Part shown: positions 22,799 to 27,834 of the stretch, piece after piece
Position numbering within the stretch: position 1 is the first letter of the stretch
Layout: each line of letters opens with the position of its first letter
From: Acidimicrobiales bacterium
Lineage (GTDB): Bacteria > Actinomycetota > Acidimicrobiia > Acidimicrobiales > RAAP-2
Assembly: GCA_025362585.1 (NCBI GenBank)
Contig: JANYFR010000045.1
Span: 2,110-66,109, forward strand
Reading direction: 5' to 3'
DNA length: 64,000 nucleotides
Notes under the pieces: generated by a model
Database searches by the model: none
The model's input: the letters and a program-made list of their open reading frames with translations, nothing else
Told to the model about the DNA's origin: nothing
Made by a program: the position numbers and the translations under genes

Positions 22799-22985
22799 CG
22801 TACTTGCGCCTCGCAATGCGAGGAGGGAGGTTCACTCGAATCAGCATCTTCCGACGGCCATTTCATCGAAGTGCTGATCGATGAACAGCGACGCGTGATG
22901 GTCGCCTTCCTCGAGGCGAGTCGATGCTCGTTTGACCCGTTAACGACCGTGGGTTCAACGGTGGTCGAGCGCTCGAGCGCCAATG

Positions 22986-23468
22986 TCAGCCCACGAATCG
23001 CGCCCGCGAGGCCTCGAGTTCCGCCAACGCCTCGTGGCGTCCGACGTAGTTCTCGACCTTTACCCACTTGCCTTCGTCGAGGTCCTTGTAGACCGTGAAG
23101 AAGTGGCTAATCCGGTCGAGGAGTTGTTGGGGCACGTCGGTGATGTCGGTCGCCGACTTCCACCGCGGGTCGTAGTTGGGAACGGTGATCAACTTGGCGT
23201 CCTCGCCCTTCTCGTCGGTCATCACGCACATCCCGAGGATCCGGGCCTCGATCAGGCACCCCGGAAATGTCGGGAACTCCGTGAGGACGAGGGCGTCGAG
23301 GGGGTCGCCATCGCCACCGAGGGTGTCGGGGATGAAACCGTACTCGGCGGGGTACCCCATCGCGACGATCAGGTGTCGGTCCAGCATGATCGTGTGCGAC
23401 TCGTGGTCGTACTCATACTTATTACGACTGTCGCGGGGTATCTCCACGACGACCTTTACCGTGTCCAT
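22986..23468 (-). CDS. ppa: Inorganic pyrophosphatase (family I)
   Basis: NKYEYD, YGFIPDT, DGDPLDALV and FFTVYKDL motifs. Confidence 0.95.
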   Translation of the reverse strand: MDTVKVVVEIPRDSRNKYEYDHESHTIMLDRHLIVAMGYPAEYGFIPDTLGGDGDPLDALVLTEFPTFPGCLIEARILGMCVMTDEKGEDAKLITVPNYDPRWKSATDITDVPQQLLDRISHFFTVYKDLDEGKWVKVENYVGRHEALAELEASRARFVG

Positions 23469-23657
23469 GAAATCGTCGGCTCCTCGATTGGTGTCGCCGC
23501 AACGACGACGCAGTTGTGGTCAATCGTAGCCATCCTCTCCACGCCTGCTTACCCGAGAATCGTCGCCCCAGACTCAGTTCACCGTTCGGGGACTGACGAA
23601 GGGGCGAGCGTAGACTTTGCCGTTGGGGTCGACGACTCGACGGAGATGGAGGTCTCG

Positions 23658-24512
23658 ATGGAGCGCATAGGTGTGGTGGGTTGTGGACTGATGGGATCGG
23701 GCATTGCCGAGATCGCGGCTCGAGCGGGCGCCGACGTCGTCGTCGTCGAGCGTGACGCCTCGGCGGTCGCACAGGGAGTGGCGCGAATCGAGCGCTCCCT
23801 CACCCGCGCCGTCGCCGCCGGCAAGATTCCCGACGATGAGGCCAACCGGACCCGAGGAAATCTGACCTTCGGCGAGGACTTCGCCATGCTCGCCGATCGC
23901 GAACTGGTCATCGAAGCCGTCGCCGAGGACGAAATCACCAAACTCGCGGTCTTTGAGAAACTCGACGACGTCGTCCTCGACCCCCGCGCCATCCTCGCCA
24001 CCAATACGTCGTCCATACCCATCATCAAACTGGCGATGGCGACCGACCGACCCGAGCAGGTCATCGGCATGCATTTCTTTAACCCGGTGCCGGTGTTGAA
24101 ACTCGTCGAGGTCATCTCGTCACTGCTCACCAGCGCGGAGACCACCGCGCGGGTCCACGCCTACGCCAGCGACGCGCTCGCGAAAAAGGTCATCTCCTCA
24201 AAAGACCGGGCCGGCTTCGTCGTGAACGCGCTCCTCATTCCCTATCTGCTCTCGGCGATCCGAATGCTCGAAACCGGCTTCGCCAGTGCCGAGGACATCG
24301 ACACCGGAATGGTCCTCGGCTGCGCCCATCCCCTTGGACCCCTGGCCCTGACTGACCTCATTGGACTCGACACCACACTCGCCGTGGCCGAGTCGCTCTA
24401 CGAGGAGTTCAAGGAGTCACACCTTGCTCCTCCGCCGCTGCTCTCTCGCATGACCCAGGCCGGACTCTTGGGCCGAAAGTCGGGTCAAGGTTTCTACTCA
24501 TACAAGGTTTGA
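23658..24512 (+). CDS. 3-hydroxybutyryl-CoA dehydrogenase
   Basis: GVVGCGLMGSG, IEAVAE, TNTSS, GMHFFNP and GFVVN motifs; GGAGG SD. Confidence 0.92.
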   Translation: MERIGVVGCGLMGSGIAEIAARAGADVVVVERDASAVAQGVARIERSLTRAVAAGKIPDDEANRTRGNLTFGEDFAMLADRELVIEAVAEDEITKLAVFEKLDDVVLDPRAILATNTSSIPIIKLAMATDRPEQVIGMHFFNPVPVLKLVEVISSLLTSAETTARVHAYASDALAKKVISSKDRAGFVVNALLIPYLLSAIRMLETGFASAEDIDTGMVLGCAHPLGPLALTDLIGLDTTLAVAESLYEEFKESHLAPPPLLSRMTQAGLLGRKSGQGFYSYKV

Positions 24513-24567: not shown

Positions 24568-25797
24568 TTAGGTCACCGCTGATCGCACGGCGAACTGCGG
24601 GTCACGGTAGGACTCGCTTGTCATGACGTCGACGATTCGTTGCACGGCGTCAAAGACGTCGACGTAGCGAAGGTAGAGAGGCGCGAAGCCAAACCGACAG
24701 ATGTCGGGCGCACGAAAGTCACCGACGACACCTCGCGCGATCAGGGCCCGGACAATGCCGTAGCCCTCGGGATGGGCGAGCGCCACGTGGCTGGCGCGCC
24801 GGCCGTGGTCGTGCGGCGTCACCAGTTTGAAGACACCGGGCAGGCGGTCATCAACGAGCTCGATGAAGAGGTCGGTCAGTGCGAGGCTCTTCGAGCGGAT
24901 CTGGTCCATCGTCGTGCGCTCGAAGACGTCGAGGGCGCCGTCGAGGGCGGCGAGGGCGATGATCGAGGGCGTCGACGTGACGAAGGCCTGCATTCCTGCG
25001 GCCGGTTCGTACGTCAGTTCAAAGTCGAACGGGCGGGCGTGGCCGAGCCATCCGGGCAGGGGGTTGCGCAGAGTCCCCTGCCACTGTGGGTGGACGTACA
25101 TGAACGCGGGAGCACCGGGCCCCCCGTTTAGGTACTTGTAGCCGCACCCGGCCGCGAAATCAACTTGCGCGTCGGTGACGTCGAGGGGGACAGCGCCAGC
25201 CGAGTGCGCGAAGTCCCAGAGCATCAACGCACCCACGTCGTGCACCTTTTTGGTAATGCCCTTCAGGTCGAGCATCTCGCCGGTGCGAAAGTCGACGTGG
25301 GTCAACTCGACCAGCGCGACATCGTCGTTCAGTTCGTCGTCCAGCCGGTCGCGGTCGATGGCTCTGACGGTGATGGGACGCCCGGCGCGCGCACAGACTT
25401 CCTCGATGATGTACAGGTCGGAGTGGAAGTTCGCGACGTCGGTCAACACCACGTGGCGATCGGGTCGCAGGTCGAGGGCGCCGCCGACCAGTTTGGCGAG
25501 GAGCAACGTCAGGGTGTCGGCGACGACGACTTCGCCGTGACGAGCGCCAATCAGCGGGGCGATCCGGTCGCCAATTCGCGTCGGCTCCGCCATCCATCCG
25601 GCCCCCCAGCCGCGCACGAGTCCTCGCGCCCACTCGTCGTCGAGCACCGCGTTGACCCGGGCGCGCACCGCTGTCGAGACTGGCCCCAACGAGTTGCCGT
25701 CGAGGTAGATCTCGTTCTCGTCGAGGGTGAACTCGGCGCGCAACTCAGCGAGTTCGTCACTCGCGTCGAGCGCCACGCAGGTAGCACGGGTCATCAC
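24568..25797 (-). CDS. kynU: Kynureninase
   Basis: YLDGNSLG, WDFAHSAG, PLP Lys in GCGYKYLNGGPG, and GDFRAPD. Confidence 0.93.
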   Translation of the reverse strand: MMTRATCVALDASDELAELRAEFTLDENEIYLDGNSLGPVSTAVRARVNAVLDDEWARGLVRGWGAGWMAEPTRIGDRIAPLIGARHGEVVVADTLTLLLAKLVGGALDLRPDRHVVLTDVANFHSDLYIIEEVCARAGRPITVRAIDRDRLDDELNDDVALVELTHVDFRTGEMLDLKGITKKVHDVGALMLWDFAHSAGAVPLDVTDAQVDFAAGCGYKYLNGGPGAPAFMYVHPQWQGTLRNPLPGWLGHARPFDFELTYEPAAGMQAFVTSTPSIIALAALDGALDVFERTTMDQIRSKSLALTDLFIELVDDRLPGVFKLVTPHDHGRRASHVALAHPEGYGIVRALIARGVVGDFRAPDICRFGFAPLYLRYVDVFDAVQRIVDVMTSESYRDPQFAVRSAVT

Positions 25798-26036
25798 CGA
25801 ACGAACTCACTTTCCACGTGCCGGGATACCGACGCTGCGCGGACGTCGCCAAAGCACGCCAAGCCCTCCATGATGTCCGTGTCGAAACAGCGCCCGATCT
25901 GGCGACCCACCGTCCAGACATGAGGTCGTCGCCCCGTCGCGAGACGCTCGTCGGGGCCGTCCTTCGAAACCGGCAACTGCAACGTCAAGAGATCAGACAG
26001 TCGCCGGTACGTCGAGTAGTTGTTCCCCTCGGTCAC
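25794..26036 (-). pseudogene. kynA: Internally deleted tryptophan 2,3-dioxygenase (kynA) remnant
   Basis: 80-aa ORF joining a TDO-like N-terminus (NYSTYRRLSDLLTLQLPVS...DE) to a TDO-like C-terminus (HVWTVGRQIG). Its stop overlaps the kynU start. Confidence 0.65.
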
Positions 26037-26074: not shown

Positions 26075-27754
<1,680 letters not shown>

Positions 27755-27834
27755 CTCTCCAGTGTGGCCCAAATGGCGAGGCTTGCGATTCGTGCGAGGG
27801 CAGGAAACCGACAACGTACCCGTACAATCGTCTG

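Follow-up and report, generated by a model that had tools for sequence, protein, structure and literature searches.

In bacteria, the aerobic conversion of tryptophan to anthranilate is encoded by kynA, kynB and kynU, as known from Pseudomonas, the Bacillus cereus group and Cupriavidus. Microhomology-mediated deletion and pseudogene erosion are likewise known in bacterial genomes undergoing reduction. Acinetobacter baumannii is devoid of kynA and needs its kynurenine cluster (KynR, KynU, a permease and the alpha/beta-hydrolase KynB) to grow on supplied kynurenine (PMC9162365). In the trp operon of the Chlamydia species caviae, felis and pecorum, an orphan kynU was proposed (Xie et al. 2002, as cited in PMC3937554) to turn host kynurenine into anthranilate.

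The locus considered here lies in a window of 64,000 nt (the whole stretch of DNA that was analysed) from an uncultured peat/soil member of the Acidimicrobiaceae, whose metagenome-assembled genome (MAG) amounts to 2.09 Mb in 64 contigs and is 96 % complete. Its kynA and kynU belong to the same families as those of the kynA-kynB-kynU systems, and in its intact relatives kynA also directly precedes kynU, with overlapping stop and start codons. It differs from them in that kynA (tryptophan 2,3-dioxygenase, TDO) was reduced to what is very probably a dead relic of 80 codons, here called ORF80, in that the pair stood behind abcF, and in that a cyclase-type kynB was found neither in this genome nor in most of the genus. 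As in Acinetobacter, kynU was kept without a tryptophan-cleaving dioxygenase. The Acinetobacter cluster, however, holds its own regulator, permease and formamidase candidate beside kynU, none of which adjoined kynU here; it belongs to host-associated Proteobacteria whereas the present organism is a free-living peat actinobacterium, and a kynA relic is undescribed there. The likeness to Chlamydia resides in an orphan kynU feeding TrpD-dependent tryptophan synthesis, trpD being present here as well. These chlamydiae, however, lack an anthranilate synthase and kynU is their sole source of anthranilate, whereas a TrpE-like synthase (502 bits) was found here; moreover, the chlamydial kynU was probably acquired, while the present one would be what remains of an ancestral pair. 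Features of the locus are listed in Table 1.

Table 1. Features of the abcF-kynA-kynU locus and its downstream boundary (positions in the window)
Feature	Position	Strand	Evidence
abcF (EttA-like ABC-F ATPase)	26075..27814	-	two ABC_tran domains and ABC_tran_Xtn; conserved upstream neighbour
kynA (TDO) pseudogene remnant, ORF80	25794..26036	-	tblastn and DNA alignment to intact kynA of relatives
5' part of remnant, native kynA codons 1 to ~30 (YSTY...PDE)	25947..26036	-	59 % amino acid identity to genus TDO residues 1-32
Deletion junction, lone GACGAG(C) copy	25946..25952	-	motif present twice in relatives, 510 nt apart, in the same codon phase
3' part of remnant in native frame (RLAT..H..GRQIG..)	25847..25945	-	tblastn; mapping onto Xanthomonas TDO 2NW7
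Stretch of 15 native codons shifted out of frame	25802..25846	-	DNA alignment, coordinates, tblastn match in second frame
Shine-Dalgarno-like stretch for kynU, GGAAAGTGAG, in the last kynA codons	25806..25815	-	junction sequences; function inferred
kynU, intact kynureninase (start GTG 25797 or ATG 25794)	24568..25797	-	TIGR01814; alignment to 1QZ9
Convergent 3-hydroxyacyl-CoA dehydrogenase gene, operon boundary	23658..24512	+	284-aa call with 3HCDH_N and 3HCDH; identical contigs; synteny

ORF80 starts with the native GTG of kynA and ends with its native TGA. The first-pass annotation had described a TDO-like start joined in frame to a TDO-like end, and this was confirmed here: with an intact TDO of the same genus as tblastn query, residues 1-32 aligned to positions 26036-25941 (59 % identity) and residues 199-230 to positions 25952-25857 in the same frame (53 % identity), followed by residues 235-249 in a second frame. 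At the DNA level, identity to the termini of intact kynA was 66-71 % in the 5' part of the remnant and 65-69 % in the 3' part, with z values of 8-12 against shuffles; the corresponding identities to relatives were ~76 % for kynU and ~82 % for abcF. Homology of ORF80 was visible only through the TDO of close relatives and synteny. Alone, ORF80 yielded no Pfam or NCBIfam match at E<=1, a scan of the whole genome with profile PF03301 at E<=10 returned nothing, the remnant included, and a search of ORF80 against 5.8 billion proteins returned only itself, with no diverged homologues. When the TDO of a relative was searched against the genome, the remnant was its single match. Nine of the 18 same-genus genomes searched displayed a TDO frame of ~250-290 residues (PF03301) directly before kynU. 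One same-genus genome, that of locus L013, also carried a second TDO of the long type (G012:C18:17656-18645), a 398-aa open frame scoring 290 bits to PF03301 and located away from the kynA-kynU pair.

The lesion was mapped by DNA alignment with six intact relatives. These display the motif GA(C/T)GA(G/A) twice, once as the Asp-Glu of PDELLF and once as the Asp-Glu/Gly of DHDERL, and both ends of ORF80 matched these relatives on either side of the single copy left here: sequence left of GACGAGC tracked the first site and sequence right of it the second. With breakpoints thus placed in GACGAG copies 510 nt apart, the large deletion removed codons 31 to ~200 in frame, that is 170 codons (~510 bp) and not the ~200 that had been estimated from the window alone. 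On sequence grounds, the junction pattern points to the signature of a microhomology deletion, which replication slippage or microhomology-mediated recombination may have produced. Two small deletions were also detected in the remnant, of 2 nt between 25847 and 25846 and of 1 nt between 25802 and 25801. Together they total three bases, and the native frame is regained just before the native TGA. The view that TDO was lost by an in-frame deletion was thus accurate for the internal deletion and incomplete for the lesion as a whole, which also comprises these two indels and heavy decay by substitution. Short direct repeats, later small indels and substitutions are shared with the microhomology deletions and pseudogene erosion of shrinking bacterial genomes, as is the grading of related species from an intact gene to a bare spacer; the difference here is that a two-gene pathway has repeatedly lost its first gene and kept its second.

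As the source is a short-read MAG in 64 contigs, the junction might be thought to result from an assembly or binning collapse of two similar stretches, the real genome bearing an intact kynA. A common motif of 6-7 nt, however, cannot bring about such a collapse, and the sequence on both sides of the junction carries decay of its own (indels, altered invariant residues), unlike that of an artefact. Furthermore, the exact KynU protein was encoded on nine other contigs, taken from NCBI assembly GCA_043723365.1 and from Logan assemblies covering several SRA runs; eight of the nine span the remnant and are identical to it save for one SNP. Runs with contigs bearing the locus include SRR23617199, SRR20627847 and SRR22198310. 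The junction is thereby crossed in eight contigs from independent assemblies, and a collapse, which had been named as what would undo the first-pass annotation, is extremely improbable.

Alignment to the Xanthomonas TDO (2NW7) placed the distal histidine (His55) and the substrate-binding residues Tyr113 and Arg117 inside the deleted codons 31 to ~200, together with most of the haem pocket. The remnant keeps the proximal haem histidine (His240) in a WRxxH motif that reads GRRPH, the invariant tryptophan four residues before this histidine being replaced by glycine. The GTGGS loop, whose Thr254 binds the amino group of the substrate, reads DTDIM, with only the threonine surviving. Whereas 53 intact relatives displayed TDOs of ~252-256 residues, only 80 residues are left here; of 38 columns still present and invariant in these relatives, 15 were altered, including five of 15 in the 5' part. 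Having acquired two small indels and decayed heavily by substitution, the remnant was regarded as a drifting pseudogene; judged from these alterations, its ends are drifting without constraint and it cannot be a working enzyme. ORF80 is thus very probably a non-functional relic of kynA that arose by ordinary gene decay next to an intact kynU.

A scan with one genome per species gathered 80 loci, all from uncultured Acidimicrobiaceae/Acidimicrobiales MAGs and largely originating from peat (palsa, bog, fen series, SPRUCE) and Danish soils. The order abcF-kynA-kynU was the commonest across these 80 related species and is probably ancestral. kynA was intact in 56 loci and cut by a contig end in two; it was completely gone from 12 loci, where abcF and kynU are separated by 14-86 nt, and partly eroded in seven loci plus the present one, while three loci displayed a different or cut-off upstream context. 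A short-chain dehydrogenase gene filled the abcF-kynU slot in place of kynA in L104 (1657-2433), and L085 and L089 displayed a methyltransferase gene upstream, abcF being absent there. Two further genomes of the genus (91 % and 97 % complete; loci L120, G008:C25, and L121, G017:C119) harbored neither kynA nor kynU, abcF being directly followed by a KdpD-like gene in the former and by an FMN-dependent dehydrogenase gene in the latter; every stage of pathway loss therefore coexists in the genus.

A quick tree search on only two linked genes, kynU and abcF, gave ten changes between the intact and lost states by parsimony, at least five of which are forced by well-supported branches. Loss of kynA with retention of kynU has thus arisen repeatedly in peat/soil Acidimicrobiaceae, about ten times, at least five of them well supported. 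The present sequence belonged to a supported clade with 16 members, 13 of them intact, and the row nearest to it was a species with intact kynA. In two kynA-less members of this clade (L031 and L032), all that is left of kynA is its final 40-85 nt, directly next to abcF. One common loss in these two and the present genome was considered and disfavoured: since their deletion end-points differ and the nearest row is intact, the present lesion is most simply an independent event. Graded erosion of kynA was also observed in a supported three-species clade in which all kynU genes are intact: L034 (2094-2500) retains kynA codons 122-251 as a 126-aa open frame, L049 (1808-1983) ~32 codons and L103 (1333-1523) ~43 codons, with the frame broken. 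Locus L061 (1838-2501) displayed an internal kynA deletion of ~codons 88-116 with its halves in different frames; as its sister species L058 is intact, this inactivation is probably recent and separate.

The kynU gene itself was intact. Its product scored 296.7 bits against TIGR01814 (cut-off 246.4), contained the KYNU_C domain, aligned over residues 1-409 to residues 1-416 of the Pseudomonas fluorescens kynureninase 1QZ9 (420 bits) and kept the PLP-lysine motif YKYLNGGPG. Being above the equivalog cut-off, it is predicted to be a kynureninase, converting L-kynurenine to anthranilate and alanine. Both candidate starts lie within GTGATG, which also contains the TGA of ORF80; the overlap of the ORF80 stop with the kynU start that had been noticed earlier was borne out (TGA at 25796-25794, GTG at 25797-25795, ATG at 25794-25792). 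Upstream, abcF preceded kynA or kynU in nearly all related loci. Downstream, a 509-aa ORF at 22983-24512 (+) was over-extended, the real start of the convergent gene lying near 23658; an inorganic pyrophosphatase gene occupies positions 22986-23468 on the opposite strand, within the over-extended portion. In a promoter and terminator scan, neither a sigma-70-like site nor, between abcF and kynU, a terminator came up, a result that is uninformative for this phylum.

The overlap raises the question of whether selection has preserved the open frame of ORF80 for use as a translated leader, with ribosomes ending at the TGA of GTGATG and re-initiating on kynU, so that coupling is maintained and ~240 nt are shielded from Rho-dependent polarity. 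The native start and stop both survive, the large deletion is in frame, and the remnant is unchanged, save for the one SNP, in the eight spanning contigs from other assemblies. The joint restoration of the frame by the -2 and -1 indels just before the stop could reflect selection as well; the chance expectation for a frame open to the native stop, however, is ~0.2, the product of 1/3 (matching frame) and 0.64 (no stop in 18 codons of local composition). Against a leader also stand the 12 relatives with complete loss and the other partial remnants, in which no ORF consistently runs up to the kynU start, and the several relatives that evolved a plain GGAG-type site, such sites being encountered in the deeper kynA-less clades. 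In addition, ORF80 had no diverged homologues among short proteins, so its conservation cannot be demonstrated. A selected leader is therefore quite unlikely. The suggestion that the deletion had preserved translational coupling lacked support in the form in which it was made: since no consistent upstream ORF exists in relatives with complete loss, whose spacers measure 14-86 nt, coupling to such an ORF is not required. Many kynA-less relatives keep the last 20-30 nt of kynA, which are Shine-Dalgarno-like for kynU, and in several of them the counterpart of GGAAAGTGAG is kept as GGAAGTGAGG. For an ordinarily decayed kynA, kynU would share the transcript of abcF and be translated by means of the Shine-Dalgarno-like stretch that the former 3' end of kynA provides, and the openness of ORF80 would be incidental.

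Full-length kynU (408-410 aa) was found in all of the 79 complete loci. On chosen pairs, kynU dN/dS amounted to 0.07-0.24 in clades entirely without intact kynA (dS 0.13-1.1) and to 0.055-0.15 in kynA-bearing pairs. Because of this full length everywhere and the low dN/dS, kynU has evidently remained under purifying selection long after kynA loss. The source of its substrate was approached through the content of the genome. As had been recommended, another kynA or an IDO gene was looked for: profile searches (PF03301 for TDO, PF01231 for IDO) and searches with the genus TDO revealed no second such gene in this 96 %-complete genome, the missing 4 % of which could strictly still hold a distant kynA. 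Nor did the locus display a kynurenine transporter or regulator adjoining kynU. The most economical reading is that kynU uses kynurenine made outside the cell; the enzyme would now take as its substrate kynurenine, or a similar aryl-amino acid, of which the cell is not itself the producer. The first-pass suggestion of imported kynurenines is plausible in this respect, with precedents in Acinetobacter and Chlamydia. The predicted products are alanine and anthranilate, and anthranilate would join the TrpD-dependent tryptophan pathway. Since trpD and a TrpE-like gene are both present, anthranilate from kynU could feed tryptophan synthesis; given the TrpE-like anthranilate synthase, kynU is predicted not to be the sole source of this compound.

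A non-homologous or very divergent tryptophan-cleaving enzyme encoded elsewhere might instead have replaced kynA and made kynU independent of outside kynurenine. The strong constraint on kynU would fit such a replacement, as would the fact that most genomes of the genus have no recognisable cyclase-type kynB even where kynA is present: since kynB is missing even beside kynA, unrecognised pathway enzymes probably exist in the lineage. Matches to PF03301 and PF01231 were nevertheless absent here, where the genus TDO found only the remnant, and PF03301 likewise had no match in five further kynU-only genomes of the genus. A replacement enzyme is accordingly regarded as quite improbable, and outside kynurenine is retained as the putative substrate source.

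Cyclase-type kynB (PF04199), which the first-pass annotation had proposed to search for, was not found in the present genome. This absence was uninformative and was rejected as a sign of pathway decay, as most kynA-bearing genomes of the genus are also without kynB. Among genomes G001-G018, the PF04199 kynurenine formamidase was missing from most carriers of kynA-kynU, and the formamidase step is presumably performed by an unrecognised enzyme in this lineage. A role of kynU in a route from tryptophan to NAD was rejected as well, since 3-hydroxyanthranilate dioxygenase was not found in the genome. NadA (PF02445) was not found in it either (G000, 96 % complete); as neither known quinolinate route is evident, NAD may rely on salvage.

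It could be proposed that the repeated loss of kynA with retention of kynU marks a switch from making to scavenging kynurenine, supplied by neighbours or by abiotic oxidation of tryptophan, in which the step requiring O2 and haem was dropped in a Black-Queen-type manner and the -2 and -1 indels were selected for a leader. Taken as a whole, this scenario is rather unlikely. For annotation, ORF80 should not be named a small protein, and a working pathway from tryptophan to anthranilate should not be inferred in this genome. Alone, the remnant is a well-documented pseudogene; the repeated directional loss in an uncultured peat lineage adds modest interest. The ~80 species form a natural series for following how, of two overlapping genes, the first can be deleted while the second is left unharmed, and the lineage pattern suggests that kynurenine may pass between organisms in peat.
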